From: Propionibacterium freudenreichii subsp. freudenreichii
Lineage (GTDB): Bacteria; Actinomycetota; Actinomycetes; Propionibacteriales; Propionibacteriaceae
Direction: 5' to 3'
Length of the DNA: 32,000 bases
Assembly: GCF_000940845.1 (NCBI RefSeq)
Contig: NZ_CP010341.1
Span: 2,340,001-2,372,000 of the forward strand
The position numbers were made by a program, and so were the translations under genes. This document shows, one piece after another, positions 3,418 through 25,198 of the stretch; the stretch's first letter is position 1; each line of letters begins with the position of its first letter. Below the pieces are notes generated by a model. That model did not search any database, was not told the origin of the DNA, and saw only the letters and a program-made list of their open reading frames with translations.

Positions 3418-3427
3418 TGGGGTCGAC

Positions 3428-3451
3428 AAAAGCACCGTCCACGGTGCTTTA
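3428..3451 (+). terminator. Intrinsic-terminator-like hairpin downstream of the PucR gene
   Basis: AAAGCACCG-tcca-CGGTGCTTT: 9-bp stem, 4-nt loop, A-tract before and T-tract (CTTTAT) after, 11 nt past the stop codon. Confidence 0.5.
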
Positions 3452-3488
3452 TCCGCACCTATCCTGCTGGTCCCCATGCCCACGGCCG

Positions 3489-3536
3489 TTAAGTGGGCAC
3501 CTGTGCGGCGTCATTCCCGCACAACTGCCCACTCAG
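3489..3536. repeat. 48-bp palindromic intergenic repeat, copy 1
   Basis: ttaagtGGGCACCTGTGCGGcgtcattCCCGCACAACTGCCCactcag. The arms form a roughly 15-bp imperfect stem. The 42-nt core 3495-3536 is identical to 3698-3739. Confidence 0.85.
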
Positions 3537-3571
3537 CGATCAGATGGCGGCGGGACCAGCCTGATCGGGCC

Positions 3572-3619
3572 TTAAGTGGAGGGTTTCGATGCGTCTAATC
3601 ACCACAACCATCCACTGAG
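3572..3619. repeat. Degenerate copy of the 48-bp repeat
   Basis: Same 48-nt length and same termini (ttaagtgg...ccactgag); the 3' half is partly conserved and the palindrome is largely lost. Confidence 0.4.
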
Positions 3620-3691
3620 TGACGAACCAGGACGAACCGGACGCCACACACATGCCGCGGGCCGCCAGGCCGCGTCCGGCAAGGAACCCCA

Positions 3692-3739
3692 CTAATTGGG
3701 CACCTGTGCGGCGTCATTCCCGCACAACTGCCCACTCAG
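3692..3739. repeat. 48-bp palindromic intergenic repeat, copy 2
   Basis: ctaattGGGCACCTGTGCGGcgtcattCCCGCACAACTGCCCactcag. The core is identical to copy 1. Confidence 0.85.
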
Positions 3740-3919
3740 CCGCCATCGCAACCGCTTCCGGCGTCACGGGCCGCCCATCCGACCCGCTCCAGCACTGACC
3801 GCCGCGGCCGACTACTCCCGCACCGGCCTCCCACCCCCGCGCTGGCTACGCTGAGGAGTCGGGCCCGCCCCACGCGGCCGGGCCCGACCACCACGCACCC
3901 GTGAACGCCAGGAGATCCG

Positions 3920-11577: not shown

Positions 11578-12167
11578 TGGGCCACATCCTGTCGTCGGCG
11601 TTCACGCTGTTCCTGGTGATGGACCCGTTGGGCAATATCCCGCTGTTCCTCACGGCGTTGCGCCATGTGCCGGCGTCACGACGCCAGAAGGTGCTCGCCC
11701 GCGAGTTGTTGATCGCCCTGGTGATCATGGTGATCTTCCTGCTTGCCGGACGCGGCCTGCTCGCCGTGCTGCACGTCACCCAGCCCGCGCTTGCGACGGC
11801 CGGGGGCCTGATCCTGCTGCTCATCGCGGTGCGGATGATGTTCCCCACCCCCGAGGCCTCGCTACGGGAACGCACCTTCGAGGAGCCGCTGATCGTGCCG
11901 CTGGCGGTGCCCTACACGGCCGGGCCCTCGGTGCTTGCCATCGAGGTGATCATGATCAACCAGACGCCCGACGCCATGCCGGCGCTGCTCGCGGCGGTTG
12001 GCTTCGCCTGGTTGCCCACTGCGCTGATCCTGTTCTTCGCCGGATACCTGCACCACTGGTTGGGCGAGCGGTTCCTCACCGCCATCGAACGCCTGATGGG
12101 CATGATCCTGATCATCGTGGCCACGCAGATGCTCATGGGCGGCGTGAAGGAGTTCTTCGGCTTCTGA
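11577..12167 (+). CDS. MarC-family (UPF0056) integral membrane protein
   Basis: MGHILSSAFTLFLVMDPLGNIPLFLTAL... is the family's signature N-terminus. The start overlaps the MFS stop (TGATG). Confidence 0.85.
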   Translation: MGHILSSAFTLFLVMDPLGNIPLFLTALRHVPASRRQKVLARELLIALVIMVIFLLAGRGLLAVLHVTQPALATAGGLILLLIAVRMMFPTPEASLRERTFEEPLIVPLAVPYTAGPSVLAIEVIMINQTPDAMPALLAAVGFAWLPTALILFFAGYLHHWLGERFLTAIERLMGMILIIVATQMLMGGVKEFFGF

Positions 12168-12177
12168 GGCGTCCGGC

Positions 12178-15100
12178 TCATGCCAGCCGTGCGCGGGCCT
12201 GGCCCTCCATCACCTCCTGCAACAGTTCGACGGTCTCGTCCTGCAGGTCGACGCCCAACAGCCGTGCATGGCGGGTGATGTGCAACACGAGCCGCTCCAC
12301 CTCGAACCGGTTGCCGGCCAGGTGCTCGGAGCGCAACCGCAGGCGCAGCAACATCTCGTCCTCCGGGGCGGCGCTCAATGCCCGTGCCGCAGCCCACCGG
12401 GCGAGGTCGACGTTCCCGGCGGCCAGGCCGCGTTCCCCCAGGGTGACCCCGATGTCGCGGATGGTGCACACCATGTCGGTGCGCAGTTCCTCGGCCCAAC
12501 GCCATTCGCCGGGTGCCGCGTCGGCCAGTGGCGCGCCACGCACCATCGACAGGGCGGCCACCAGGGCCTCATCGCCGGCCTTGTTGACGCCCACCGAGAT
12601 CAGCAGCTGCAGCTGCTCCCAGTCGGAACTGACGCCGGGATGCAGCGCGATGTGGCCGGTGTAGGCATCGGGCAGATAGGGCTCGCCGGCCTCGTCGGCC
12701 CCCAACCAGGCACGCAGCCGCGACATGTTCGAGCGTCGGGTGGTGTCGGCGATGAGCAGGTCGCGTGTCATGCGCACGGCGTTCGATCCGGGATGGTGCA
12801 GGATCCATGCGCAGTATTCCTGGCACTGGCGCACGGCCCGGCTGGGCTGGCGTCCCCGGGTGTTGACCAGCTCAACCGGCCCCAGGATCTTGAGGAAGGG
12901 TGCATCTATCGGCGGCGCAAGCACGGTGGACTCCTCCGGTAATGAGGTGGCGGGAACGGTGGGTAGGGCGACGAGCGGCACATCCGCGCCGGCGGGTGGG
13001 CCGGCATGGGGGTCGCCGTCACCGTCGAAGCGCCACCACCACGCCTCCTCGTAGTCGGTGTCGTCCGCGGCGTCGAGCAGCTCGACGATGGCCCGGCGTG
13101 CCGGCGGCATCACCAGGTCGGGGGTGAACTCGGTGCCCCGCCAGCGGGCCCGGTCTTCGCCCAGTACGAGCGGGCACTCGTGCGCGTCGTCGTGGCAGAC
13201 CACCGCGATTCCCAGGCGCCGCAGCGCCTCCGGACTCTCGGTGCATGGGTCGTGCAGGAAGAACACGGCGGGCAACCAGGCGTCGCGCAGCTCCGGGTCC
13301 AGGCGCAGGACGTCGGCGTCGCGATCGGGGGGCAGGTTTCCGCTGCGGTGGGCGACCAGGGCCGCCAACCGCGCCGCCAGGTCGTCCTCGCTGGCCGCGA
13401 CGAGCAGGTTCGGTGCTTCGAGGCGTTCCAGCCAGCCACAGTCGGGTGGCACATGCACTTCGGCGACGGCCTGGTTGGCCGACAGCTGCACCGCCATGGC
13501 GGCGAACAGGCCGGTCACCAGTTCGGTGTCGGGGGAGCTGACCGCCAGCACCCCCAGGGATGCGAGGTCCAGGCGCACCGGGTCGTCCCCGGCGACGCCC
13601 AGCTGCACGGCCCCGCCGCCTGCGTCCTGCGGGATCAACCCACCGGGGCCCAGGTCGTCAGGGGCCGGGTCGTCAGGGTCCATGTCTTCAGGGCCCATGT
13701 CGTCTGGGCCCGGGCCACCGGCCTCGATGTCGCCACGGTGCGGGACACCATCAAGGCCCCCAGTGGCCGGATCAATCACCGAAGGGTCGCCACGGTCGCC
13801 AGTGCTGAGGCGTCCGACCGGCTCGTCCGGCCATGATCGATCAAGGGACGAGCTCCGGGCCCCGGGGCGGGAGATCTCGAGGACATCGGCCACATCGTCC
13901 GCGCCGGGCGCGCCGGGCGCGCCGTGCATGCCCCGCACCGACCCGGGCGACGCCGAGACCGCGGCAAGGGCCGCTCCGGCGCGGGCGCTGTCTGCACCCA
14001 CGGCGTGGCGGCGGCGTCCCAGCGGACGCGCATTGAGCTGCCAGCGACGCCGCAGTCCCAGCACGCCCAGTACGGCAGCGGCGGAGGCCGCCCCGATCGG
14101 GCCCACCAACGAGAGCACCTGATTGCGCACATCGCGCTGGCTGCTCAACACCGCTCCGTCGCGCGCGGCCTGCTGAGCGGGTTCCTCACCGGTCGCCGAT
14201 TCCGCCACTCCCGTCCAGCGCGCGATGTCCGAGGCGCCGGCCTCGTCTGATGACGCCTCGCGCGCGGAGGTCTCCTCGCCGGAAGACCCCTGCGATGCGG
14301 CGTCGTGCCCCTCGCCGGCGGATTCGCTCGCAGGCCCGTGCGCGCGTGCCGTGCCGGAACTCGCGTCGGCCACGGCATGGTCCCGGGATTCCTGCTCCCC
14401 GGCCGCTGGGTCGGCATCTGCTCCCACGCCACCGGCCCGGGCCACCTCGTCCGGCGCTGCTGCGTGGGCGTCGCCGCCTGCGTTTCCGGGCACCACGGCC
14501 CGAGCCCCGGTCCCTGTCCCGTCAACCAGTTGGAAGTCGGCACGCTGGGGGCCGGCCGGCTGTGAACCGGCCGTTGTGGCGGGCCCCTGCCCCGGTGCCA
14601 CCGCGGGCAGCACCAGGCGCTGTCCGGGGTGGATCAGGTCGGGTTGTGGCACCTCCCCCGCGTTCGCGGCGGCCAACAGGGGCCACTGCGCACCGCCACC
14701 CAGATGGGTCTCAGCCAGCTGCCACAGCGTGTCGCCCGGGGCGACGACAACATCGCCGCCGCCATGGCCGGCACCCGATGGATCCGGCGACGCGGGTGGC
14801 TCAGCGGGCACTGCCGCTTCCCCGTTCCCGCCCGCATCCGGCTGTCCGGCTTCGTCGGCCTGCCCCGTTCCGGTCGCTGGCCCAGCATCATCTGACAACC
14901 CGGCATCATCTGACAACCCAGCATCATCCGAGAACCCGGCGCCTTCCGGCGACCCTGGATCATCCGGCGACCCTGCATCGAGGGATGGCTCCGCCGACTC
15001 GTCCACACCGTCGTCGTCCGTCACGATGGCCGAACCATCCGGACCGCCGTCGGACAGGACGGCCACGCCGTCCGGATCGTCCTCGTCAGACGGGGCGTGC

Positions 15101-15888
15101 GCCCCGAACTCCTCATTGAGCAGCTGGACGGTCGAGTTGGCGACGGCCCCTTCGGATGCGTGCGATCCCTCGGGAACCGCCGTGTCCTGCAGGGCGTCGG
15201 GCACCGTCGCGCCGGGAATCTCGATCATCACGCCCACGGGCAGGGCGTCCACGGCGGAAAGCCCCAGCGTGGCGTTCGCCCCGACGATGTCGCGCCACTG
15301 TTCCCCGGCGCCGTAGTAGTGCTCGGCCAGGGTCCACAGGTCGTCACCGGAGACGATCTGGTGCCACTGGGAATCGGCCCGAGGGCTTGTTGCTGCCGAG
15401 TCGGTACGGGAATCCCGTGACGGTGCTTCCTGCGCATCTGCTGCGGCCAGGGGCGTCGCAGCCGCCGGCCCCTCCCCCGCTACTGACTCCGCAGACACTG
15501 CGGCCGACGTGGACGACACCGAGGCACAGGGCGCGGAGTTCGTCGCAGCCGATTGCACGCCGATCAGCCCGGCGATGGAGGCGACGAGCACGGCGGCGGC
15601 CGGACCGAACAGCCGTGATCCCGGAAGGCGCACCGAGATGCGGCCATGGCTCACCGCCGACAGTGCCTCGGCCACCACCGAGCCGGTGAGCATTGCCCAC
15701 GCGACCCAGCCGAGCACGGTGAGGGCCAACAACACCAGGGAGCCGTCGTCGGGACGCGAGAGGATGCCCGACCACTCGATGCTGAACAGCAGGTCTCCGC
15801 GGCCCCAGTGCACCAGGGCGATGGCCCCGCCGGGGACCAACGCGAGCAGCACGAGCAGGGACGTGACACTCGACAGGACTCTTCTCAT
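12178..15888 (-). CDS. Membrane-anchored LysM x2 / winged-helix + BTAD (SARP-like) fusion protein, last gene of the tad operon
   Basis: 1236 aa. Three N-terminal TM segments (approx. aa 5-27, 50-75, 93-113). LysM-like segments: HQIVSGDDLWTLAEHYYGAGEQWRDIVGANATLGLSAVDALPVGVMIEIPG (DNA 15211-15363) and VVVAPGDTLWQLAETHLGGGAQWPLLAAANAGEVPQPDLIHPGQRLVLP (DNA 14605-14754). Fourth TM VLSLVGPIGAASAAAVLGVLGL is followed by RRRWQLNARPLGRRRH. The C-terminal 239 aa (DNA 12181-12897), FLKILGPVELVNTRGRQPSR...MSRLRAWLG...DWEQLQLLI...EWRWAEELR...LLRLRLRSEHLAGNRFEVERL, fits OmpR-type wHTH plus BTAD. ATGA overlap with the upstream tadE-like gene. Confidence 0.85.
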   Translation of the reverse strand: MRRVLSSVTSLLVLLALVPGGAIALVHWGRGDLLFSIEWSGILSRPDDGSLVLLALTVLGWVAWAMLTGSVVAEALSAVSHGRISVRLPGSRLFGPAAAVLVASIAGLIGVQSAATNSAPCASVSSTSAAVSAESVAGEGPAAATPLAAADAQEAPSRDSRTDSAATSPRADSQWHQIVSGDDLWTLAEHYYGAGEQWRDIVGANATLGLSAVDALPVGVMIEIPGATVPDALQDTAVPEGSHASEGAVANSTVQLLNEEFGAHAPSDEDDPDGVAVLSDGGPDGSAIVTDDDGVDESAEPSLDAGSPDDPGSPEGAGFSDDAGLSDDAGLSDDAGPATGTGQADEAGQPDAGGNGEAAVPAEPPASPDPSGAGHGGGDVVVAPGDTLWQLAETHLGGGAQWPLLAAANAGEVPQPDLIHPGQRLVLPAVAPGQGPATTAGSQPAGPQRADFQLVDGTGTGARAVVPGNAGGDAHAAAPDEVARAGGVGADADPAAGEQESRDHAVADASSGTARAHGPASESAGEGHDAASQGSSGEETSAREASSDEAGASDIARWTGVAESATGEEPAQQAARDGAVLSSQRDVRNQVLSLVGPIGAASAAAVLGVLGLRRRWQLNARPLGRRRHAVGADSARAGAALAAVSASPGSVRGMHGAPGAPGADDVADVLEISRPGARSSSLDRSWPDEPVGRLSTGDRGDPSVIDPATGGLDGVPHRGDIEAGGPGPDDMGPEDMDPDDPAPDDLGPGGLIPQDAGGGAVQLGVAGDDPVRLDLASLGVLAVSSPDTELVTGLFAAMAVQLSANQAVAEVHVPPDCGWLERLEAPNLLVAASEDDLAARLAALVAHRSGNLPPDRDADVLRLDPELRDAWLPAVFFLHDPCTESPEALRRLGIAVVCHDDAHECPLVLGEDRARWRGTEFTPDLVMPPARRAIVELLDAADDTDYEEAWWWRFDGDGDPHAGPPAGADVPLVALPTVPATSLPEESTVLAPPIDAPFLKILGPVELVNTRGRQPSRAVRQCQEYCAWILHHPGSNAVRMTRDLLIADTTRRSNMSRLRAWLGADEAGEPYLPDAYTGHIALHPGVSSDWEQLQLLISVGVNKAGDEALVAALSMVRGAPLADAAPGEWRWAEELRTDMVCTIRDIGVTLGERGLAAGNVDLARWAAARALSAAPEDEMLLRLRLRSEHLAGNRFEVERLVLHITRHARLLGVDLQDETVELLQEVMEGQARARLA

Positions 15889-16442
15889 GGCCTTCGCTCC
15901 TTGTAGGTGTCCAGCCGCGACACGGCATGGCCGGTGGCTTCCAGGGTCCCGGGCATCGCCAGCACGAGGTCCGAGAACGCGACCCGGCAGGTGACGTCGA
16001 CGCCGATCTCGCCGGAGCGGCCCGCCGCCAGGGAGAAGGCCGAACCGTCGACCTGCACCTCGGGGTCGACACAGTGGCTGGACACGGCGTCAAGGTCGGC
16101 GGCGATGGCCGATCGGGCGGCCTGGACGGCCTTGTCGTGGGTTGCGGCAAGGCTCGCTGCCCGGGCACCGGCCGCGGCGGCGTCGTGCACCTGGGCACGC
16201 ACCGACCAGATGCGCCACCCGGCAGTCATCAGGGCGATGAACAGGACGATTCCGGGCACGATCACCACCACTTCGATGCTCACCGCTCCCCGCTCGCCGT
16301 GCCGGCTCTCCCGCCGACCTGCCTTCCGACCTACCCACTCGCGCGGGCCGGCCCACCTGCGGCGTCCCGAGCTCTCCGGGGACGCGGCTTCGTGCACGGC
16401 CCTGCCGCCGACGTGTCGGCCGGTCCGGCCCAGCGTGTTCAC
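15885..16442 (-). CDS. TadE/TadG-like pseudopilin
   Basis: ...GERGAVSIEVVVIVPGIVLFIALMTAGWRIWSVRAQVHDAAAAGARAASLA: the G/AVSIE processing-type motif plus a hydrophobic helix is typical of the TadE-like domain. GTG start at 16442. Confidence 0.8.
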   Translation of the reverse strand: MNTLGRTGRHVGGRAVHEAASPESSGRRRWAGPREWVGRKAGRRESRHGERGAVSIEVVVIVPGIVLFIALMTAGWRIWSVRAQVHDAAAAGARAASLAATHDKAVQAARSAIAADLDAVSSHCVDPEVQVDGSAFSLAAGRSGEIGVDVTCRVAFSDLVLAMPGTLEATGHAVSRLDTYKERRP

Positions 16443-16507: not shown

Positions 16508-16930
16508 CTACTGCTCCTTCGCGCGGGTGGCCGTCACCGTGACGTCACCCAGCCCGACGTCGAGTGGCAACGGAACGGTCGCCTCGACCGTCACCGAGAT
16601 CTCCGTGTCACTCACAAGGGAGTGTGTGCGCACCGCCTCCAGTTGACCGGTCATGTCGGCAACGACCTTCTCTGCGGCATCCGAGGAGATCCCGGACAGG
16701 GCCTGCGTCTCGGCGGCGGTGAGCGCCGCCTGCTGCACGATGCTGCGTCCGTGCAGCCACACGCCGGCCTCGATGAGCCCGAGCACGATGAGCATCAGCA
16801 CCGGCGCGAGCACGCCCCATTGCAGTGATTCGCTCAGGCCACGCTCGTCGCGCCGACGTCGCACGACGACCGACCGCGACCCCCGGCGGGTGCGGCCGGC
16901 CGCCTCACTTGGGCATATTGGATTCGACAT
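16508..16930 (-). CDS. TadE-like pseudopilin
   Basis: ...RRRRDERGLSESLQWGVLAPVLMLIVLGLIEAGVWLHGRSIVQQAALTAAE. The maximal ORF start ATG 16930 overlaps flp by 26 nt; GTG 16864 (VRRRRDERG...) is an alternative start giving a canonical TadE N-terminus. Confidence 0.8.
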   Translation of the reverse strand: MSNPICPSEAAGRTRRGSRSVVVRRRRDERGLSESLQWGVLAPVLMLIVLGLIEAGVWLHGRSIVQQAALTAAETQALSGISSDAAEKVVADMTGQLEAVRTHSLVSDTEISVTVEATVPLPLDVGLGDVTVTATRAKEQ

Positions 16931-17129
16931 AGCTGCGCACGGCGGCGATCACGATGCCGGCAACCACCACGGCGCCGGCCAGCAGCACGGCGTTCTCGGT
17001 GGACTGCGACAGGCCACGTTCATCGTCGCGGGCGCCGTGGTCGTCGCGGACCGCCGGCGTGGGCATCGCGACGAATCCGACGACCAGGGCGGTGAGGCGG
17101 CTCAGTGTCTCCAGTGCTCTGCTTGCCAT
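16905..17129 (-). CDS. flp: Flp-family type IVb prepilin (actinobacterial type)
   Basis: AAGGAG lies 9 nt before ATG 17129. Translation: MASRALETLSRLTALVVGFVAMPTPAVRDDHGARDDERG|LSQSTENAVLLAGAVVVAGIVIAAVRSYVESNMPK. A Gly is followed by a short polar stretch with Glu and then a hydrophobic helix. Positioned between tadC and the tadE genes. Confidence 0.75.
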   Translation of the reverse strand: MASRALETLSRLTALVVGFVAMPTPAVRDDHGARDDERGLSQSTENAVLLAGAVVVAGIVIAAVRSYVESNMPK

Positions 17130-17213: not shown

Positions 17214-18125
17214 TCATGCCACACCGGCCAGGCGCATCAGGGGCGGCGCGATGAACGACAGGCCGAAGACCATCACCGGCAACGCCATCCACAACGTCAT
17301 GCGTTCGCTGACCTCCTGGGCCTCCATGCGCCCCGCACTGAGGTGGGCGTCGCGCAGTTCCTCCACGCGGGCGGCCAGCGCCTCGGTCAGTGAGGCGCCC
17401 TGCTCGTCGAGCTGCATGATGTCGGCGAGGTCCTCCAGGGGAGGTAGGCGCAGGTCGTGGGCCAGCCGCCGCAGGCCGTCCCAGGGCGGACGCTGTTCGA
17501 GTCCCGCCTGGGCCAGCACGCCACGCACCCGCCGGAAGATCGCCACATCGGACACCGATGCGGCTGCCGACAGGGCCTGGGTGGCGGAGCGATTGGCCAT
17601 GCGTTCCAGCATCACGAGGTCGAACAGCGTCAGCAGCGCCTCGTCGGCCTCGAACCGGGTGCGCTTCGACCCGGCCCGCAGCGACAGGTCGGGCCAGCAC
17701 CAGCCCAGTGCGCCCAGTGCCAGCGCCACCAACAGGGTGGGGGCACGCAGCGGCGAGCCCATCGCCGCGCTGACCGCCGTGACGATGGTGGGCAGCGCCA
17801 GGCCGGCCAGGCACAGCACGATCTTCTCGGCCATGAAATCGCCGATCGACCGGTCGCTGAGCTGCAGCATGCCTCGTGCGCGACGCCCCAGGGGCAGGTG
17901 CAGACGCGCATAGGCGTAGGCACCGAGGCGCTCCAGCGAGGAATCGGCGTCGCGCACCAGGTCTTCTTCGGGGCCCTGCCGGCCGGCCACGGTGCCATCC
18001 AGCGCGGCAAAGGCGTCGCCCATGCGCACCGGACGACGTGCCCAGCCGGCGAGCACGAGGAATGCGCCCAGTCCTGCCACGGCACCGGAGATGATCACCA
18101 GGATCGCTGGGTCAGGCATCGTCAC
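17214..18125 (-). CDS. tadC: Tad platform protein TadC (type II secretion system F family)
   Basis: Polytopic membrane protein with a T2SSF-like cytoplasmic domain. Follows tadB with a 14-nt overlap. Confidence 0.8.
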   Translation of the reverse strand: MTMPDPAILVIISGAVAGLGAFLVLAGWARRPVRMGDAFAALDGTVAGRQGPEEDLVRDADSSLERLGAYAYARLHLPLGRRARGMLQLSDRSIGDFMAEKIVLCLAGLALPTIVTAVSAAMGSPLRAPTLLVALALGALGWCWPDLSLRAGSKRTRFEADEALLTLFDLVMLERMANRSATQALSAAASVSDVAIFRRVRGVLAQAGLEQRPPWDGLRRLAHDLRLPPLEDLADIMQLDEQGASLTEALAARVEELRDAHLSAGRMEAQEVSERMTLWMALPVMVFGLSFIAPPLMRLAGVA

Positions 18126-19002
18126 CCCCGGCGGGGGCCAGCTCGACGCCGTCGCCCTGCAGGATGCGCTCCCGCTGCTCGGGCGTCGACATGCGGCGCA
18201 GCATCACCAACGAGCCCAGGTAGGCGGCCAACAGGCCGGCACCGAGCAGTTGGCCGGTCGGTGTGAGGTAGGGCGCCACATAGTCGGGGTTGAACACGGC
18301 CACGCCGACCAGCACCACGACGGTGATGAGCGTCACCTGACGCACCACGATGCGCGGTTTCGCCCGCTCGGTGGCGATCTCGCGCAATGACTGCAGGCGA
18401 CGCCGGGAGTGCTGGCCCAGTGCCCGCAGGGCGTCGCCGGTGCCGGTGCCACCGCGGCGGGTGGCCACGATGAGGGCGGCGATGATGGCGTCGGCATCGG
18501 GGTGGGCCAGGTCATCGGCCATCGCCCGCAGTGCCGAGGCGGTGGACCAGCGGGCATCGAGCCTGGCGATCAGCCCGTCGACGGGGGCCCGCAGCACCGG
18601 CGCCACCTGGTTGCGGGTGGCCCGGATTGCGTCGGGCACCGACTTGCCGGTGGACACTGATCCGATGAGCAGCCGCACCCACCGATCGCAGGCCTCCAAC
18701 ACCTCGACGTCACGGTTCGGGGGCGCCGACAGCAGGCCGGGCAGCACCAGGATCAACGCGGGCACGCCGCCGGTAACCAGCAGCGATCGTGTGAGCAGGT
18801 AGCCGACGAGCGCGCCGGCCACCGCCAGTGACCAGCTGATCTGTTGGGCACGGGTGGCGCCGTGCCACCGGGCGCGCACCAGCACCGGGATGCCCGGGCC
18901 CGAGACATCGCCACGACGACGCGGCCTGCGCACCAGCCCCTCCACCACGGCGAAGACACCGAAGATGGCGGCGGCACACAGCGCGACGAGGACCGGGTTC
19001 AT
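18112..19002 (-). CDS. tadB: Tad platform protein TadB (type II secretion system F family)
   Basis: T2SSF-type pattern (...DAIIAALIVATRRGGTGTGDALRALGQHSRRRLQSLREIATERAKPRIVVRQVTLITVVVL...). ATGA overlap with tadA. Confidence 0.8.
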   Translation of the reverse strand: MNPVLVALCAAAIFGVFAVVEGLVRRPRRRGDVSGPGIPVLVRARWHGATRAQQISWSLAVAGALVGYLLTRSLLVTGGVPALILVLPGLLSAPPNRDVEVLEACDRWVRLLIGSVSTGKSVPDAIRATRNQVAPVLRAPVDGLIARLDARWSTASALRAMADDLAHPDADAIIAALIVATRRGGTGTGDALRALGQHSRRRLQSLREIATERAKPRIVVRQVTLITVVVLVGVAVFNPDYVAPYLTPTGQLLGAGLLAAYLGSLVMLRRMSTPEQRERILQGDGVELAPAGGDDA

Positions 19003-20774
19003 CGCCCACGCTCCCGCGACGCCGGGTCGCCGGCGCTCCGACGATGGGTGGCCGGAGCGCCGGTGGGCTCCGCGAAGGGGGCCAGATCGTCGAGCAGGCC
19101 CTGGCCCGGGTCGAACACCTGCGGCTCACCGGTACGGGAGGTGGCGTAGACGAGGTGGGTGGTGGGCTGGCCATTCTCCATCGATCCGGTGAGTGCGCGG
19201 ATCTCGGAGATGAAGCGCTTGCGCACCCCGCCGCGCCAGGTGTCGTCCACCAGCGAGACATGCACCAGCAGGTGCACGTTGTAGGCGATCTGGCGATAGG
19301 CCTCGTCGAGGCGCAGCACACCGCCGGCCGCCACGCGTGCCGCGAGCCGGTCGATGGTGGATGCCGCTGAATGCGAGTGGGTGGTGGTCAGCGCGCCGGC
19401 GCCGGATTGCATGGCCTGGAGCATGGCGCCGGCCTCGTTGCCACGTACCTCACCGATCACCAACCGGGACAGGTTCTGGCGCAGGGCCTCGGGAATCAGG
19501 TCGGCGACCGTGTATTCGCCGATGCGGCGTCCGTCGACCACCTCGCCCAGGCCGATCTTGGCCTGCAGGGCCACCATGTTCTGACGGCGCGATTGCAGGT
19601 GGGTGAGCAGCTCGTAGTCGGTCTCCAGCGTGCCGAATCGCTCGGTGGCCGGGATCGCGCCCACCATCGCGCGCAGCAGCGTGGTCTTGCCGGCACCCTG
19701 GTCGCCGGAGATCACCACCGACTTGCGGGCCAGCACGCAGCGACGCAGCAGGTCGGCCACCTCGGTGGGCATCATCGAACCGTGGGCCAGTTGCTTGAGG
19801 CTCACCTCGGTGAGCAGGTGCTGACGGATGATCACCGAGGGACGATCGGCCAGCCCGAAGGCCACCGCATGCAGCCGGAACTTGTTGCCCAGCGCCACGG
19901 TGATGGTGGGGTGGGCGTCGTCGAAGGGCCGCGGCGGATCGGCGTTCTCGCCCAGGAAGCGCACGGCGGCCACGAGTTCGTCGTCGGAGTCGGCCACCGG
20001 GTCGAGCCGGGTGCGGCGCCCGTCGCCGAATTGGGCGAAGACGCAGTCGTAACCGTGGATCTCGATGTTCTCCGCCTCGGAGACCTCGAAGATCGGCTGC
20101 ATCCGTCCGTAGCCGAAGATGGCGTCCTCGACGGCCTTCACGTACCGCTGTTCCAGGGCGATCGGCCACAGGGCCCGGCCGGCGCGGTTCAGCTCGTCGG
20201 CGTAGTCGTGCACGGCGCGCCGGATCAGCGAGCGGCCCATCAGCCGGCGATCATCGTCGGCCATGCGTCGGTGGTGTTCCTGCTCCCACCGGGCCTGTTC
20301 GGCGGTGATGAGCTCGCTGATCGTGGACCGCAGCTGGGCGACGATGGACCAGTCAGTGGTTTGGTGGCCCGACGGGCCGGGGACACCGCCCGCACCCGGA
20401 CGCTGATTGTCGGCGGCCTGCATCGGCGTGCCGACGGGACGCCCAGCGGGCACCGTGCCCGGGGTCCGCACGCGGTGGGCTGCTCCTGCAGAGGTGGGGG
20501 CCGACTCGGATTCCTGCGGGACCCCACGCTGCGGGAGGTCCACCGGCTGCGTCCCGAGCGGTGAAGCGGACGCGGAAACGTTCGCCGGGGTCGTGACGAC
20601 CTGGTCAAGGAGCGACAGGGCGTCGGCCAGGCCACCGGGGGACGGGCCATCCCCCCGGTCAGGGTGCGGTGCCCCATCCCCCGCGTGGAGCGGTGGCGCA
20701 GCCTGCCCCGGACGAAGGAACGGAAGGGCTCGTCCCGGGCCAAGGGGCGGCAGATCGGACGCGCGGTGGGTCAT
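18999..20774 (-). CDS. tadA: Tad secretion ATPase TadA/CpaF with a Pro/Gly-rich N-terminal extension
   Basis: Walker A is VISGDQGAGKTTLLRAMVGAI. RLVIGEVRGNEA (Walker B/Asp-box region) and TTHSHSAASTIDRL (His box) are also present. About 190 aa of low-complexity sequence precedes the conserved core. Confidence 0.92.
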   Translation of the reverse strand: MTHRASDLPPLGPGRALPFLRPGQAAPPLHAGDGAPHPDRGDGPSPGGLADALSLLDQVVTTPANVSASASPLGTQPVDLPQRGVPQESESAPTSAGAAHRVRTPGTVPAGRPVGTPMQAADNQRPGAGGVPGPSGHQTTDWSIVAQLRSTISELITAEQARWEQEHHRRMADDDRRLMGRSLIRRAVHDYADELNRAGRALWPIALEQRYVKAVEDAIFGYGRMQPIFEVSEAENIEIHGYDCVFAQFGDGRRTRLDPVADSDDELVAAVRFLGENADPPRPFDDAHPTITVALGNKFRLHAVAFGLADRPSVIIRQHLLTEVSLKQLAHGSMMPTEVADLLRRCVLARKSVVISGDQGAGKTTLLRAMVGAIPATERFGTLETDYELLTHLQSRRQNMVALQAKIGLGEVVDGRRIGEYTVADLIPEALRQNLSRLVIGEVRGNEAGAMLQAMQSGAGALTTTHSHSAASTIDRLAARVAAGGVLRLDEAYRQIAYNVHLLVHVSLVDDTWRGGVRKRFISEIRALTGSMENGQPTTHLVYATSRTGEPQVFDPGQGLLDDLAPFAEPTGAPATHRRSAGDPASRERGR

Positions 20775-21808
20775 GGTCGGGGCCTCCCGGTTGCCAGCGG
20801 CGGGTCCACGGGGCCGGCCATCCGATCGCGAGCGCCCGGGGTGACGCCGGCGGACTGTACGGGTGCCCGGCCGATGCTCCCTGTCAGCGGGTCATGCGAT
20901 CGGGAGGTCCCCGTCGCGAGGTCACGGGAGGAATTCGGTGTGGCGATCACGCGGGCCGAGACGGCCGATGCCGCCGCACTGGCACTGCGCATGAATGAGC
21001 GCTCACGGAAGCGGCGCGGCTCGTCGCCACCCTCGCTGAGCACGGCGGCCTCCTCGGGCTGCCAGGCCATGTCGGCAACCACCGGCACGCCGAATTGGGC
21101 CTCCACGTCGCCATCGGAATAGGGCCGCGAGGGGCCCACCACGAGCAGCCCCAGCTTCGCCGCAGGCGCCAGGGCTGCCGTCCGCTCACGAAGGGGCGGC
21201 AGGTGGAGGCGGGCGGCGGCCAGTGACCGCAGTGAGCTCCGCACCACCATCAGCACCACGTCCGCGGCACCCAACAGCGCCGAAGGCAGGCCCTGATGGC
21301 CGACGCGCCCGGCATCCACGATCACGTCGACCCCGCTGCCGGCCAGGCCGGCGAGGGCCTCGGCGACTTCGGGCCAGACGGGATCGAAGACCGCGACCGA
21401 TCCCGGATGGGAGAACCCGGGCAGGAACTGCCGGGCGACGGGGCGGGACTCCGCCACGGCCGGGGCGCCGGGCCGCTGGTCGGCGATGGGCTGCCCCGTA
21501 GCATCGAACCGGCCCATGGCCTGGTCGGGAACGCCAGCCGATCCGGCGGGCGCGTCGTCCAGCAGGGAGACCGTGCGGTCCCACAACAGCGGGGCCACCG
21601 GACGCATCTCGCGGTGCGCCTGGGCAAGTTCGACCAGGCCGCGCGTGGCCAGCGGCCGTGCGCCGAGCCAGCCCGCCTGCACGGTCTGGGAGACATCGCG
21701 ATCAGAGTCGACCAGCAGCACATCGCGCGGCCAGCACAGGGTGAGTGCCAGGGCACTGGTGGTCACGCCGGGTGATCCGGTGGCGCAGGTGAGCAGGACG
21801 ATGGCCAT
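20771..21808 (-). CDS. tadZ: TadZ/CpaE-like (Ssd-like) ParA/MinD-superfamily protein with a deviant P-loop
   Basis: MAIVLLTCATGSPGVTTSALALTLCWPRDVLLVDSD...: GSPGVTT stands in place of the canonical KGGxGKT. Located directly upstream of tadA (ATGA overlap). Confidence 0.75.
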   Translation of the reverse strand: MAIVLLTCATGSPGVTTSALALTLCWPRDVLLVDSDRDVSQTVQAGWLGARPLATRGLVELAQAHREMRPVAPLLWDRTVSLLDDAPAGSAGVPDQAMGRFDATGQPIADQRPGAPAVAESRPVARQFLPGFSHPGSVAVFDPVWPEVAEALAGLAGSGVDVIVDAGRVGHQGLPSALLGAADVVLMVVRSSLRSLAAARLHLPPLRERTAALAPAAKLGLLVVGPSRPYSDGDVEAQFGVPVVADMAWQPEEAAVLSEGGDEPRRFRERSFMRSASAAASAVSARVIATPNSSRDLATGTSRSHDPLTGSIGRAPVQSAGVTPGARDRMAGPVDPPLATGRPRP

Positions 21809-22362
21809 CAGGCTGCCGTCCCGTGCACCACGACGAGACGTCCCGCCGCGGCCAGCGTCGCGATCCGCAAGGAGGCACCGGCCGGCACGTCCAGGTCGAA
21901 GTTCCAGGAGCCGTCGGACTGACGGCTCGGGGTGCCCACGATGGTGGCCGGCACGCTCAGCTGCTCAGCCCTGAAGCTGGCGTCATCGGTGGGCCCGGGG
22001 GCGGCCGAGATGATCACGGCCGAACCGGCCACAAGATCACCGGGAACGCGGCCGGCCACGAGGTGGACCCCCACGTGATGGCGCCCGGGACGCACGGTCT
22101 CCTCGCCCAGGGCGCTGGCCGGCACCAGCATGCCCTGCTGCAGTTCCACCAGGGCGGTGGTGCCGATCAACGTCGACAGCTGTTCGGCCCCGATGGTGGC
22201 GACGCCGGGCGCCGAACCGATGCTCGTGGTGCCCAGGTCGGCGCCGTCAATGGTGGCGCCACGCGGCACGGCGCGCACCATGACCACGACCTGGCGGGCG
22301 TCGGTTGCCTGGTGCCAGGCCACGGCGCAACCAAGTCCGCCGAGGCAGGCACAGAGCACGCC
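21808..22362 (-). pseudogene. cpaB: cpaB/rcpC-like Flp pilus assembly gene, C-terminal fragment (interrupted by the IS)
   Basis: Residual ORF ...G-VLCACLGGLGCAVAWHQATDARQVVVMVRAVPRGATIDGADLG... (TM helix then SAF-like domain). The reading frame continues upstream into the IS end with no start codon. Its 5' part lies at 23810-23902. Confidence 0.8.
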
Positions 22363-22370
22363 GATAATGA
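22363..22370. repeat. Target-site duplication (left copy) GATAATGA
   Basis: Identical 8-mer at 23810-23817, immediately flanking the IS ends. Confidence 0.75.
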
Positions 22371-23809
22371 GGGTCTTCTCAGATGAGGGTGTAGGTCGGC
22401 CGGGCGCGTCGGTCCGCAGATAGACGTCGAGGTCTCCCGACGATGGAGGTTCCTACGCCATCCATCCGAAAGACCTCGACGTGTCCGACGCTACCCCGCC
22501 GGCCGGCTTCGGCCGCCCTGACCTGACCGCCTTCGCTCGACTCGACGGCCTCGGTCTGAGCGTGACCGGACAACGACTTGAACCGGATCGTGCGGTCCTC
22601 GCGTGCCGCGTGGTGGAACCAGATCAGTGGTGCCGACGGTGCGGCAGCGAAGGCGCTGCTCGTGACACCGTGATCCGGCGGTTGGCCCACGAGCCGCTGG
22701 GCTGGCGACCGACCGTGCTGGAAGTTGTAGTGCGCCGCTACCGCTGTGCCGACTGCGGACACGTGTGGCGCCAAGACACCAGCGCCGCGGCGGAGCCACG
22801 CGCGAAGCTCTCGCGCACCGGGCTGCGGTGGGCGCTGGAAGGGATCGTGGTCGCACACCTCACCGTCGCCCGTGTCGCCGAGGGACTCGGGGTCGCGTGG
22901 GACACCGCCAACAACGCGGTCCTGGCTGAAGGCAAGCGGCTGCTGATCAACGACCCCACGCGGTTTGAGGGCGTGAAGGTCATTGGCGTCGATGAGCACG
23001 TCTGGCGCCACACCAGGCGTGGCGACAAGTACGTCACCGTGATCATCGACCTCACCCCGGTCCGCGATGGCGCCGGCCCAGCAAGGCTGCTGGACATGGT
23101 CGAGGGCCGGTCGAAGGCGGCGTTCAAGACCTGGCTCGCCGACCGCGACGACGCCTTCCGTGACGCGGTCGAGGTGGTCGCGATGGACGGCTTCACCGGG
23201 TTCAAGACCGCCGCTGCAGAGGAGATCCCGGACGCGGTCACGGTGATGGATCCCTTCCACGTCGTGCGCCTGGCCGGTGACGCCCTCGACAGGTGCCGGC
23301 GCCGGGTCCAACTCGCGATCCACGGGCACCGTGGGTTCAGGGACGACCCGCTCTACAAGTCGCGGCGCACGCTGCACACCGGCGCGGACCTGCTCACCGA
23401 CAAGCAGAGCGACAGGCTACGCGCGCTGTTCGTTGATGACGCTCACGTCGAGGTCGAGGCGACCTGGGGTGTCTACCAGCGCATGATCGCCGCCTATCGC
23501 CACGAGGACCGGCAACGTGGCCGCGAGCTCATGGAGAAGCTGATCACCGACCTCAGCGCCGGCGTCCCCAAGGTGCTCACCGAGCTCACCACCCTGGGCC
23601 GGACCCTGAAGAAGCGAGCCGCTGACGTGCTCGCCTACTTCGAACGACCCGGCACCAGCAACGGGCCGACCGAGGCGCTCAACGGACGGCTCGAACACCT
23701 GCGCGGCTCCGCACTCGGGTTCCGCAACCTGACCAACTACATCGCCCGAAGCCTGCTCGAGACCGGCGGCTTCAGACCCCAACTCCTACACCCCCGATTG
23801 GGATGAGCC
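22371..23809 (+). mobile_element. ISL3-family insertion sequence (1439 bp)
   Basis: Single transposase ORF. Terminal inverted repeats GGGTCTTCTCAGATGAGGGTGTAGG (22371-22395) and the reverse complement of 23785-23809, GGCTCATCCCAATCGGGGGTGTAGG, match at 18/25 positions and begin like typical ISL3 ends (GGCTCTT-like). An 8-bp direct duplication flanks the element. Confidence 0.88.
22481..23806 (+). CDS. ISL3-family transposase
   Basis: 441 aa. N-terminal zinc-finger pattern CRRCG...CADCGH, then VIGVDEHVWRH...YVTVIIDL...VVAMDGFTGFK...VMDPFHVV... and TSNGPTEALNGRLEHLRGSALGFRNLTNY, all characteristic of the ISL3 DDE transposase. The stop codon lies inside the right IR. Confidence 0.93.
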   Translation: MSDATPPAGFGRPDLTAFARLDGLGLSVTGQRLEPDRAVLACRVVEPDQWCRRCGSEGAARDTVIRRLAHEPLGWRPTVLEVVVRRYRCADCGHVWRQDTSAAAEPRAKLSRTGLRWALEGIVVAHLTVARVAEGLGVAWDTANNAVLAEGKRLLINDPTRFEGVKVIGVDEHVWRHTRRGDKYVTVIIDLTPVRDGAGPARLLDMVEGRSKAAFKTWLADRDDAFRDAVEVVAMDGFTGFKTAAAEEIPDAVTVMDPFHVVRLAGDALDRCRRRVQLAIHGHRGFRDDPLYKSRRTLHTGADLLTDKQSDRLRALFVDDAHVEVEATWGVYQRMIAAYRHEDRQRGRELMEKLITDLSAGVPKVLTELTTLGRTLKKRAADVLAYFERPGTSNGPTEALNGRLEHLRGSALGFRNLTNYIARSLLETGGFRPQLLHPRLG

Positions 23810-23817
23810 GATAATGA
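23810..23817. repeat. Target-site duplication (right copy) GATAATGA
   Basis: See 22363-22370. Confidence 0.75.
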
Positions 23818-23902
23818 TCAACCGCGGACTTCTGCGCGCACGCAACGACGGGACTGCCCGGCGTGTGAGCTCGGAAAGTGATTTGCGGGGAAATGCCACC
23901 AT
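23810..23902 (-). pseudogene. cpaB: cpaB/rcpC-like gene, N-terminal 31-codon fragment
   Basis: ATG 23902: MVAFPRKSLSELTRRAVPSLRARRSPRLIII, which then runs into the IS (…GSSQSGV*). Joined to 22362 downward it gives ...RRSPRLIIIGVLCACLGGLG..., a typical CpaB N-terminus (basic stretch then TM). Confidence 0.75.
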
Positions 23903-23947
23903 GGAGAGATCCCTTTCGGCACGGGCCGGGGGGACCCGTGCGTGAGA

Positions 23948-23977
23948 AACATAGATGAATCCCATTCCGCAACTCAA
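23948..23977 (-). promoter_or_regulatory. Candidate sigma-A-type promoter of the tad operon
   Basis: Minus strand reads TTGAGT (rc of 23972-23977), an 18-nt spacer, then TATGTT (rc of 23948-23953). The predicted TSS is near 23941, about 40 nt upstream of the cpaB ATG. Confidence 0.4.
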
Positions 23978-24508
23978 CTCAGATTTGCACCATTGTGGAC
24001 GACCGCATAGTTATCCACAGGCATTGACATCGACGAATTCAGGCGTGTCGCCGACCCCGGCCAACGAGGAACTAAACCTGCGTCCCCCAAGAGATTGATG
24101 GCATTCACCCTTGTCATCACCGCAATGACGCCCAGCGGGCCGGCGAACCACAGCGATGCCATTCATCGCGCGGCACGGGCCCGCTGAATCCCCTTGGGGG
24201 AAACCGGAAAGATTCCTGCCGGCACGACGCCGAATCACCGCCAGCGGCGACCATGCCGAACTTCAGCGTGCCCCGCTCATGGTTGACGCCGCACTGCGCC
24301 GGGGAAGCCCCGTGAACGGCCACTGGACACGGCGCCCACGCCCGCACGGCCAGCACCCGCCGCGCACCATCAACGACAGCGTCCGGCCGGGAATTCGCCA
24401 GCACCGCCCGGGATGGAAACGCGCCGTGGAAGGGGCCGGTCAGACATCTTCACCAGATCCGGAAAGGTGGAGAAAAGCGGCCCACCACTAGGCCTTTCAC
24501 CATGTTGG

Positions 24509-25198
24509 CTAACGACGCCTGATCCGGATATATCTCCGGAAGTCCTTGCCCTTGAAGGGATTGGAGATCGAGCACGGAAGCGTCCAACCGCGCCAGGCGG
24601 AGACGATCGTCAACAGGCTGCCGACAGCCATCGCAATCACCGCGCCCCACGCCGAATCGCCCAGCTTGTAGAAAATCACCACGAGAACCGATGAAACCAG
24701 CGCCGACGTGGCGTACAGGGTGTTGTCACCGAAGATCACGGGCATCTTGCGGCTCAACAGATCGCGCAACATGCCACCACCGGTTGCCGACACGACGCCC
24801 AACAGCACCGCCTGCACGGGGCCCAGCCCGAAGACCAATCCCTTGTGCGTTCCGGTGTAGGCCCAGGCACCCAGTGCCAACGCGTCCATCAGGGGGAACA
24901 GCCGTTCCTGGAAGACCTTGCGGATGGGCACGACGAAGGCCACCAGCGCCCCGACGGCCGCCAGCGGAATGTAGATCGGGTTGGTGAGCGCCACCGGTGT
25001 GCCGCGACCGAGCAGCACGTCGCGCAGGATGCCACCGCCCAGCCCGGTGGCCAGTGCGAGCACGGTGAATCCCACCAGGTCGAAGCGCAGTCGCTTGGCG
25101 GTGATGCCGCCCAGGATCGCATTGGCCAGCACTCCGATGAGGTCGATCACGAGGAATGCCTCGCCCATGATCGGCAAGGTGCCTGCACCGATGGGCAT
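24509..25198 (-). CDS. TRIC-family cation channel / UPF0126 (YadS/YicG-like) membrane protein
   Basis: Two internal repeats carry the family glycine motifs (ATGLGGGILRDVLLG and ATGGGMLRDLLS) across seven hydrophobic segments. GGGAG RBS 6 nt before ATG 25198. Confidence 0.85.
   Translation of the reverse strand: MPIGAGTLPIMGEAFLVIDLIGVLANAILGGITAKRLRFDLVGFTVLALATGLGGGILRDVLLGRGTPVALTNPIYIPLAAVGALVAFVVPIRKVFQERLFPLMDALALGAWAYTGTHKGLVFGLGPVQAVLLGVVSATGGGMLRDLLSRKMPVIFGDNTLYATSALVSSVLVVIFYKLGDSAWGAVIAMAVGSLLTIVSAWRGWTLPCSISNPFKGKDFRRYIRIRRR

Follow-up and report, generated by a model that had tools for sequence, protein, structure and literature searches.

An ISPfr2-like ISL3 insertion splits the first gene of a tad-type operon in Propionibacterium freudenreichii

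The stretch of Propionibacterium freudenreichii subsp. freudenreichii DNA analyzed here (the window; 32,000 nucleotides of contig NZ_CP010341.1) carries an insertion sequence (IS) at the head of a tad-type operon. This raises the question of whether the IS has broken a gene that was recently whole or merely precedes one, and what follows for the genes downstream. We conclude that an active, ISPfr2-like ISL3 element very probably transposed into the first gene of this Tad/Flp-type operon, inactivating a CpaB/RcpC-like gene and probably lowering the expression of the genes behind it. The features discussed are collected in Table 1.

Table 1. Features of the insertion site and of the interrupted operon, numbered by position in the window
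Feature	Position	Strand	Description
LysM-containing protein	12178..15888	-	1236 aa, last co-directional ORF; Pfam LysM 2e-11; start overlaps preceding stop by 4 nt
Second TadE-like protein	15885..16283	-	132 aa as in other strains, or 185 aa from GTG 16442
TadE-like pseudopilin	16508..16930	-	140 aa; Pfam TadE (PF07811) 7.6e-9
Candidate Flp-type prepilin	16905..17129	-	74 aa; …DERG/LSQSTENAVLLAGAVVVAG…; AAGGAG before start
TadC-like platform protein	17214..18119	-	301 aa; Pfam T2SSF 0.0025, below cut-off; assigned by position
TadB-like platform protein	18112..19002	-	296 aa; Pfam T2SSF 2.4e-9
TadA-type secretion ATPase	18999..20774	-	591 aa; Pfam T2SSE 6.6e-21; TIGR03819 TadA family 1.5e-40, below cut-off
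TadZ-position ORF	20771..21808	-	345 aa; start overlaps stop of split gene by 1 nt
3' fragment of split gene	21808..22362	-	Codons 32-215 and stop; distal TM helix, SAF domain, putative second beta domain
Target-site duplication, left copy	22363..22370		GATAATGA
Left terminal inverted repeat	22371..22395		GGGTCTTCTCAGATGAGGGTGTAGG; 18/25 match to right arm
Hairpin in transposase leader	22424..22482	+	Strong; covers GTG start codon; 12-nt perfect stem
Transposase gene	22481..23806	+	441 aa, intact; sole ORF of the IS
Right terminal inverted repeat	23785..23809		Reverse complement GGCTCATCCCAATCGGGGGTGTAGG; 18/25 match to left arm
Target-site duplication, right copy	23810..23817		GATAATGA
5' fragment of split gene	23810..23902	-	Codons 1-31 (MVAFPRKSLSELTRRAVPSLRARRSPRLIII); includes right target-duplication copy
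Upstream intergenic region	23903..24508	-	606 bp; presumed site of operon promoter

The element occupies 22371-23809 (1439 bp). These limits coincide with the limits of its identity to nine other copies in complete P. freudenreichii genomes (100.000% over 1439 bp), and the imperfect terminal inverted repeats (IRs), which begin GG(G/C)TC, lie at exactly those ends. ISL3 elements range from about 1.2 to 2.3 kb, and 1439 bp fits this range. One ORF fills the interior and there are no passenger genes. Its product matched Pfam DDE_Tnp_ISL3 (PF01610; 4.2e-56, 190.9 bits) and the NCBIfam model NF033550 for ISL3 family transposases (364.5 bits, cut-off 180), with a subthreshold match to Zn_ribbon_ISL3 (23.0 bits, Pfam cut-off 25.5). 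The initial annotation, which had described a 1439-bp ISL3 element with IRs matching at 18 of 25 positions, thus held in its coordinates and family, as did its statement that the IS is transcribed opposite to the operon, the transposase lying on the plus strand and the split gene on the minus strand. The leader of the transposase gene folds strongly (-39.5 kcal/mol and z = -4.4 for 22410-22500), and this hairpin may have a role in translational control.

Copies that are 99 to 99.8% identical to the element are labelled by NCBI as "ISL3-like element ISPfr2 family transposase." With the name taken from this annotation, the element appears to be ISPfr2 or one indistinguishable from it. The ISPfr names originate in the CIRM-BIA1 genome paper (PMC2909200). 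Copy-and-paste transposition of ISL3 within cultures of strains JS12, JS15, and JS17 was described by Deptula et al. in 2017, who annotated the actively transposing ISL3 transposase as "ISAar20"; the two genome versions of JS12 differ by exactly 1447 bp (1439 + 8), and those of JS17 do likewise (PMC5644110). Because this increment matches that in the window, we assume that "ISAar20" and the window IS are one element. The identical transposase protein was found in 467 blocks of a public collection. When representative genome contigs were searched with the 31-nt left end of the IS, there were seven matches, all in other actinobacterial genera, and none in a P. freudenreichii representative.

The 8-bp direct duplication reported earlier was confirmed as a perfect GATAATGA at both ends of the element. 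The chance of an 8-nt match at the exact ends is estimated at about 5e-5 at the local base composition, and the repeat exceeds chance expectation. The exact direct repeat is in fact 11 nt long (GCCGATAATGA), as the last 3 nt of the right IR happen to match the three nucleotides just left of the target. Four of the nine other copies are flanked by perfect 8-bp duplications, at moderately AT-rich targets, indicating that 8 bp and not 11 is the correct reading. The target in the window is AT-rich, comprises the Ile codons of the conserved motif RSPRLIIIG, and is single-copy at the empty site. One ISL3 copy would have transposed into it by copy-and-paste, generating the duplication.

The IS is multicopy and its copies are 100% identical, which is the situation in which assemblers err and might misplace an element during repeat resolution. 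However, the perfect duplication reproduces an exact target that is uninterrupted in other strains, and the same left junction was found in contigs from at least four independent public datasets (short-read and metagenome). Because independent contigs carry the same junction, an assembly artefact is so improbable that we give it almost no weight. Three of these contigs end 28 nt into the left end of the IS and a fourth ends 139 nt into it; all four otherwise match the window at 99.99 to 100%. Scans of metagenome contigs for the IS junction and for the empty site gave no matches; that collection apparently does not contain the species, and the result has no bearing on allele frequency.

The insertion site is uninterrupted in 14 other P. 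freudenreichii loci. In three of them, both flanks are 100.000% identical to the window over 12.6 to 13.9 kb, minus only the 1447 bp; the other 11 are 99.0 to 99.9% identical and contiguous across the site. The right-hand IS junction was absent from all loci searched for it. These identical flanks, and the 100% identity of the IS to its other copies, bear out the proposal that the insertion is recent. By these sequence comparisons, it appears to be very recent and to be segregating within one clonal lineage.

In silico deletion of 22371-23817 (1447 bp) joined MVAF...SPRLIII to GVLCACLGG... in frame and restored a 215-aa ORF, as had been predicted, and the product matched a P. freudenreichii protein over its full length (100% identity, 100% coverage). 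The break falls after codon 31 and before codon 32, a position that lies both in the transmembrane (TM) helix and in the family's most conserved block. Past its 31 codons, the 5' fragment reads on for 7 codons into the IS (GSSQSGV) up to a stop at 23786-23788; a look-up found no 63-aa N-terminal fragment on record. The sole in-frame start left to the 3' fragment is GTG 22359, which would give 183 aa. No start codon lies between the in-frame stop inside the IS and this GTG, and an IS-gene fusion protein is therefore ruled out. A promoter created at the junction with a leaderless start at GTG 22359 was also rejected, since the CATTAT hexamer concerned is part of the native target and its spacing to the GTG is too short.

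Gene callers disagree on the start even in IS-free strains, where the product is called at 236, 215, 183, or 171 aa, the 171-aa start being the call of the NCBI pipeline in several of these strains. If the gene began at GTG 22359 or at the 171-aa start, the IS would lie in a 5' untranslated leader, the protein would be intact, and only regulation would be affected. However, the best-conserved part of the family is encoded by the sequence that precedes the IS. In an alignment of 25 homologues (38 to 55% identity), the N-terminal block RARRSPRLI is nearly invariant, and R21, R23, R24, S25, P26, R27, L28, G32, L34, C37, L38, G39, G40, and L41 are invariant or nearly so. That homologues at this distance conserve exactly this block argues against GTG 22359 as the natural start of the gene. 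The block also supplies the beginning of a TM helix predicted with confidence, so that shorter products would have no membrane anchor, and no Shine-Dalgarno sequence is evident before GTG 22359. Relatives lacking both the IS and the segment 23810-23902 had been named as possible counterevidence; IS-free relatives keep the segment contiguous. We therefore consider a leader insertion highly improbable. The 183-aa C-terminal ORF is on record only as a gene call in an IS-free strain. A 171-aa call would make the IS look intergenic, and the pipeline calls of 171 to 236 aa represent an annotation problem that is corrected here.

With the IS interrupting the block that is most conserved in the family, the split gene itself is almost certainly inactivated. 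Any 183-aa product would be missing the N-terminal portion of the anchor helix together with the positive-inside signal. The comparison with RcpC33-303 of P. aeruginosa suggests that such a product would remain cytoplasmic, leaving the gene null. RcpC is essential for Tad function and is cytoplasmic without its N-terminal helix (PMC12307814). An older report, as it is cited in that paper, described P. aeruginosa rcpC mutants as still piliated, and on this account the loss of the split gene need not abolish the filament.

The restored product is predicted to be a bitopic membrane protein with a short basic cytoplasmic N terminus, one TM helix, and an SAF domain and second beta domain outside the membrane, the topology following from the positive-inside rule. 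The AlphaFold2 model (pLDDT 83) has a helix at residues 26-51 over LIIIGVLCACLGGLGCAVAW, preceded by RARRSPR. Support for the earlier label "CpaB/RcpC-like" was divided. In its favor, the SAF domain scored 24.8 bits, above the Pfam cut-off of 21, the TM helix is N-terminal, and the best PDB matches in Foldseek were to RcpC (9gzr_B and 9gzr_A; E values of 4e-8 and 4e-7). These alignments covered 174 to 189 columns, but the global TM-score was only 0.3, owing to domain orientation. On the other side, the CpaB equivalog model TIGR03177 gave 20.4 bits against a cut-off of 71, with only the SAF region aligned. The Pfam RcpC domain was not detected in the 215-aa protein, and a secretin domain, the mark of the RcpA/CpaC partner, was absent from all nine operon ORFs, as expected for a monoderm. 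A PDB sequence search with the family profile found no relatives, leaving the fold comparison as the sole informative search. The split gene ends in an overlap with the beginning of the 345-aa ORF, after which comes the T2SSE ATPase gene. The protein may be regarded as an actinobacterial counterpart of CpaB/RcpC, an assignment that the models and domain matches support in part.

The genes that follow agree with the initial description of a tad-type operon whose first gene is split: a TadA-type ATPase, T2SSF platform proteins, and TadE-like ORFs lie downstream. The 345-aa ORF had no Pfam or NCBIfam match, and its TadZ label is given by position only. The second TadE-like protein scored 21.4 and 18.9 bits with Pfam TadE, just under the cut-off of 22.9. 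No Pfam family matched the 74-aa ORF, which is a candidate Flp-type prepilin by its size, its position, and an ERG-hydrophobic motif shared with the two TadE-like ORFs; its putative cleavage motif (...DERG/LSQSTENAVLL...) is followed by a hydrophobic stretch. No TadV prepilin peptidase was found among the window ORFs scanned, and in actinobacteria this enzyme is typically encoded away from the tad operon (PMC4322843). Eight downstream genes had been described as translationally coupled. There are eight co-directional ORFs, and five of the junctions overlap by 1 to 26 nt, but at the other junctions about 65 to 85 nt separate the ORFs, so that coupling applies only to part of the operon.

It is plausible that the IS uncouples these eight genes from their promoter. 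Transcripts from the native promoter would have to cross 1.4 kb of untranslated IS RNA that is antisense to the transposase gene, and expression downstream is for this reason probably reduced, though not necessarily abolished, through Rho-dependent polarity and convergent transcription. A scan of 21700-24600 found no sigma-70-like site, including in 23903-24508, nor did it predict an intrinsic terminator on either strand of the IS. Read-through is therefore physically possible, and the downstream genes might still be transcribed by it or from unseen internal promoters; in a 70% GC actinobacterium, a promoter and terminator scan of this kind is uninformative and cannot settle polarity. At 24479-24494, the upstream gene has a terminator-like hairpin. 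Rfam gave nothing credible, either across the entire window or in a permissive scan limited to 22300-24600, and the region preceding the operon showed neither a riboswitch nor a leader RNA.

The insertion could instead be regulatory: a promoter at the IS end, either outward or hybrid, would drive the tad genes, possibly more strongly than the native one. Other ISL3 elements are able to contribute an outward -35 and to form hybrid promoters (PMC13216065, PMC13142319). However, the outward -35 documented for ISL3 is located at the 3' end (PMC13216065); in the window this end points away from the operon, and the IS-derived read-out suggested in the initial annotation therefore finds no support. 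There is also no sigma-70-like site on the operon strand at the left end of the IS, and the first gene is destroyed regardless. We regard an activating insertion as very unlikely and retain gene inactivation with probable polarity.

A further explanation accepts the insertion as real and holds that it is phenotypically neutral, the Tad locus having already been dispensable or silent and decaying under relaxed selection. One strain (GCA_053839625.1) has a 2-bp frameshift in tadB, electron microscopy studies of several strains reported no Tad pili (PMC5644110, PMC5902329), and an SSF symporter gene in CP191348.1 is likewise split by this IS. The pili studied in PMC5644110 were sortase pili only, and P. 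freudenreichii is not known to make Tad pili. Against decay, the operon is otherwise intact and is 99 to 100% conserved in the other 15 loci compared, making long-standing pseudogenization unlikely. We take neutrality seriously as a possibility without favoring it. It is compatible with the inactivating insertion proposed here and concerns only the consequence.

The IS marks one clonal P. freudenreichii lineage as a probable Tad-pilus mutant, with a possible bearing, in cheese and probiotic strains, on adhesion, aggregation, biofilm, or DNA-uptake traits, and IS-positive and IS-negative relatives with identical flanks allow direct comparison. The strains of GCA_900000125.1 and GCA_030235365.1 are examples of IS-free clonemates. 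The occurrence of both alleles on 100% identical backgrounds and the recurrence of the IS-positive allele in several public datasets could mean that a widely used dairy lineage is under selection for loss of the Tad machinery, or at least tolerates this loss and lets it spread; we consider this reading doubtful. If this were the case, the isogenic pair would be a natural knockout for the role of a CpaB/RcpC-type ring protein in a secretin-less monoderm. The tadB frameshift in the other strain would then be an independent second hit.

Among known systems, the split gene is closest to CpaB of Caulobacter and RcpC of P. aeruginosa, an inner-membrane-anchored alignment ring (PDB 9gzr), with which it shares the predicted TM helix, the SAF-type domain, a putative second beta domain, and a place directly upstream of a TadZ-position gene and tadA. 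In contrast to these proteins of about 260 to 300 aa, its product has about 215 aa, its host is a monoderm with no secretin in the operon, and the motif RARRSPRLIxIGVLCACLGGLG is specific to its own family. The actinobacterial tad loci of Micrococcus luteus (tad-1 and tad-2), Bifidobacterium breve, M. tuberculosis (Rv3654c-3660c), and the C. acnes plasmid have in common with the window the gene order (TadZ-position gene), tadA, tadB, tadC, small pilin (a candidate in the window), and TadE-like genes, and they likewise have no prepilin peptidase gene clustered with the operon (PMC4322843). Unlike them, the window locus has an SAF/RcpC-like gene at its head and a 1236-aa LysM protein at its end, and its candidate pilin motif, ERG/LSQSTEN, departs from the G/XXXXEY consensus. 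In its expected effect, the insertion resembles the classical polarity of IS1 and IS2 in gal and lac, where an IS in a promoter-proximal gene causes gene loss and lower downstream expression, and the promoter-proximal ISL3 disruption of the agr operon in E. faecium (PMC13216065), with the polarity in the window being a prediction. The element itself does not appear to differ from ISPfr2 of P. freudenreichii in its 1439 bp, its 441-aa DDE transposase, its imperfect IRs, or its 8-bp duplication, and only the insertion site is particular. The locus is thus an ordinary natural IS knockout, not a new kind of system, caused by an element that is apparently already named and is known to be active in the species.

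The element splitting the first gene of the tad operon ends in 25-nt inverted repeats with 18/25 positions matching and lies between two copies of the target-site duplication GATAATGA. The only ORF that it carries matched the Pfam DDE_Tnp_ISL3 domain (4e-56) and the NCBIfam ISL3 transposase model (364 bits; cut-off, 180), together with a weaker, sub-threshold match to Zn_ribbon_ISL3 (23.0 bits; cut-off, 25.5). The duplication, limits, inverted repeats, and ISL3 type proposed in the initial annotation were thus borne out by the sequence and the family matches. The exact direct repeat flanking the element is 11 nt long (GCCGATAATGA), because by chance the right inverted repeat ends in the same three bases as those just left of the target; 8 bp is the correct reading, since 8-bp duplications flank other copies of the same element. 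The GTG start of the transposase gene is covered by a hairpin at 22424 to 22482 (plus strand; 12-bp perfect stem, -39.5 kcal/mol, z = -4.4), which probably locks translation and so guards against activation of the transposase by read-through.

Features of the insertion and of the tad operon (window positions)
Feature	Coordinates	Strand	Length	Family match
Target-site duplication	22363-22370 and 23810-23817		8 bp	
IS	22371-23809		1439 bp	
Transposase ORF	22481-23806	+	441 aa	DDE_Tnp_ISL3
TadZ-position ORF		-	345 aa	none
TadA-type ATPase		-	591 aa	T2SSE
TadB-like platform protein		-	296 aa	T2SSF
TadC-like platform protein		-	301 aa	T2SSF, below cut-off
Candidate pilin		-	74 aa	none
TadE-like protein		-	140 aa	PF07811
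Second TadE-like protein		-	132 or 185 aa	PF07811, just below cut-off
LysM protein	12178-15888	-	1236 aa	LysM

The in-silico removal of 22371 to 23817 joined the minus-strand fragments in frame into a 215-aa ORF (MVAFPRKSLSELTRRAVPSLRARRSPRLIII before the junction and GVLCACLGG... after it), which is identical (100%, full length) to P0001, a protein recorded as 'Hypothetical membrane protein [Propionibacterium freudenreichii]', confirming that excision restores the gene. The comparison with sister strains that had been proposed also revealed uninterrupted sites. The L001 locus (GCA_900000125.1) was 100.000% identical to the window over 6563 and 6096 nt on the two sides of the site, and the two alignments overlapped by exactly the duplicated bases, so that 1447 bp is the sole difference. 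Loci L030 and L031 showed the same IS-free pattern with 100% flanks over 10.8 and 3.1 kb, and eleven more (L002 to L011 and L029) were contiguous across the site at 99.0 to 99.9% identity. None of the loci compared up to that stage held the right-hand IS junction.

The occupied allele was seen independently in four contigs that were 99.99 to 100% identical to the window. Those from SRR32572257, SRR21196186, and SRR33789955 end 28 nt inside the left end of the IS, and the ERZ27292419 k141 contig ends 139 nt inside it; short-read assemblers stop at that depth within a repeat. Because empty sites occur on identical flanks and the occupied allele recurs, the insertion is real; it segregates in a single clonal background and occurs in several public datasets. 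A 3-bp GCC-repeat indel in the region of 18973 to 18975 (about tadB codon 10) accounts for TadB lengths of 296 versus 297 aa and marks the lineage holding both alleles.

The element was 100.000% identical over 1439 bp to nine other P. freudenreichii copies, taken from the complete genomes CP120880.1, LT576034 (JS18), LT576032 (JS2), and CP191348.1. Perfect 8-bp duplications flanked four of the nine (CTGAAAGA, GGTAATCG, GGTTTGGT, and CGTTTGCA). The annotation 'ISL3-like element ISPfr2 family transposase' is attached to copies with 99 to 99.8% identity on plasmids of Rhodococcus, Tsukamurella, Pseudonocardia, and other actinobacteria. Copy-and-paste movement of an ISL3 transposase has been reported within JS12, JS15, and JS17 cultures (Deptula et al. 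2017, PMC5644110), and the two JS12 genome versions, like the two of JS17, are exactly 1447 bp apart, that is, 1439 + 8 (Table 1, PMC5644110). The identical copies, the ISPfr2 labels, and this transposition record indicate that the element and its activity in P. freudenreichii are already known; here a named and demonstrably active IS has, in an identical copy, occupied a further site within its usual host species and disrupted a gene in a conventional way. In CP191348.1, compared to CP120880.1, the copy flanked by CGTTTGCA interrupts a gene for a sodium:solute symporter, turning 539 aa into 123-aa and 429-aa pieces. Four other copies (L020, L021, L024, and L026) share the left flank GCAGCGTTTGTC, beside another ISL3 remnant, and differ in their right flanks, a pattern that suggests that IS copies have recombined with one another, in keeping with the rearranged genomes described in this species (PMC5644110).

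The same IS was present at 98.7 to 99.8% identity in very distant Actinomycetota (L012 to L018, L023, and L040), both on plasmids of Rhodococcus, Tsukamurella, Pseudonocardia, Rathayibacter, Cryobacterium, and Dietzia and in Kineosporia, Serinicoccus, Brevibacterium, Phycicoccus, Gordonia, and Corynebacterium sputi, an identity that implies recent inter-genus transfer. Outside Propionibacterium, every full-length genome copy that was read (L013, L014, L016 to L018, and L023) had the left flank AAGACGTTTCAG and no target duplication. This flank is adjoined in L018 and in L040, a Rhodococcus plasmid copy, by genes for an AraC-type regulator and a small antibiotic-biosynthesis monooxygenase. Several loci have IS bases 1 to 166 a second time, as a solo copy in the vicinity; its distance from the left end is about 2.1 kb in L014, L018, and L023, and L012 and L015 have partial copies. 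The IS thus resembles an end of some larger mobile unit.

All eight co-directional ORFs downstream of the split gene are open in the window. Their description as eight translationally coupled genes holds for the five of eight junctions that overlap, but the others have gaps of 65 to 85 nt. Alignments to L030 and L031 remain 100% identical as far as window position 11612 and so include all eight ORFs, whereas that to L001 includes seven of them and reaches into the beginning of the last, the LysM gene. That gene overlaps the preceding TadE-like gene at its start, and its 1236-aa product had no family match other than LysM. This protein, in which a membrane segment at the N terminus is accompanied by two LysM-like stretches and by long low-complexity regions rich in Asp, Gly, and Pro, is not a usual accessory of tad loci. 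The operon has no prepilin peptidase gene clustered with it, as is typical for actinobacteria (PMC4322843). In strain JS7 (L007, LT618777.1), an IS30-like element at 2640 to 3760 (344-aa transposase, HTH_38 and rve) lies at about window position 24496, 12 nt past the Gly_transporter stop, just before a terminator-like hairpin and about 530 bp upstream of the operon start.

The 5' fragment of the split gene terminates 7 codons inside the IS. GTG 22359 is the only in-frame start of the 3' fragment and has no obvious Shine-Dalgarno sequence; any 183-aa product made from it would be missing the basic motif and the first part of the anchor helix. Since RcpC of P. aeruginosa is cytoplasmic when its N-terminal helix is removed, and Tad function there depends on RcpC (PMC12307814), the split gene is very likely null. 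A polar effect on the genes downstream is plausible, because any operon transcript would include 1.4 kb of RNA that is untranslated and runs antisense to the transposase gene. A promoter/terminator scan found no intrinsic terminator within the IS and located no native operon promoter, and the outward -35 of ISL3 elements sits at the 3' end (PMC13216065), which here faces away from the tad operon; we therefore put the suggestion that the operon is uncoupled from its promoter at even or slightly better. With the IS+ allele, which recurs in public datasets, a CpaB/RcpC-like gene of a monoderm would be naturally knocked out on an isogenic background. In another strain (L005, GCA_053839625.1), a 2-bp deletion at about position 8210 (about window position 18597) frameshifts tadB into 163-aa and 136-aa pieces. 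That the operon has been damaged a second time, independently, hints that selection on Tad pili may be relaxed or negative among dairy strains.

In the IS-free strains (L002 to L011 and L029 to L031), automated start calls for the gene (region 21808 to 23977, minus strand) give 236, 215, 183, or 171 aa. The 171-aa call drops the transmembrane helix, and the IS would then look intergenic; a natural start at GTG 22359 would likewise leave the coding region uninterrupted. In an alignment of 25 homologues with 38 to 55% identity, the best-conserved block of the family (R21, R23, R24, S25, P26, R27, L28 ... G32, L34, C37, L38, G39, G40, and L41) straddles the insertion between residues 31 and 32, which settles, on conservation, that the predicted coding region spans the site. 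An AlphaFold2 model of this 215-aa protein (mean pLDDT, 83) has a helix at 26 to 51 followed by beta domains, and the Pfam SAF domain scored above its cut-off. The operon has no secretin, as expected for a monoderm. The two top Foldseek matches in the PDB were RcpC of the Tad alignment complex (9gzr; E values of 4e-8 and 4e-7 over 174 to 189 columns), followed by FlgA and NeuB SAF domains. We retain the CpaB/RcpC-like label on architecture and position, not as a certified equivalog member: the protein scored only 20 bits against the CpaB equivalog model TIGR03177 (cut-off, 71).
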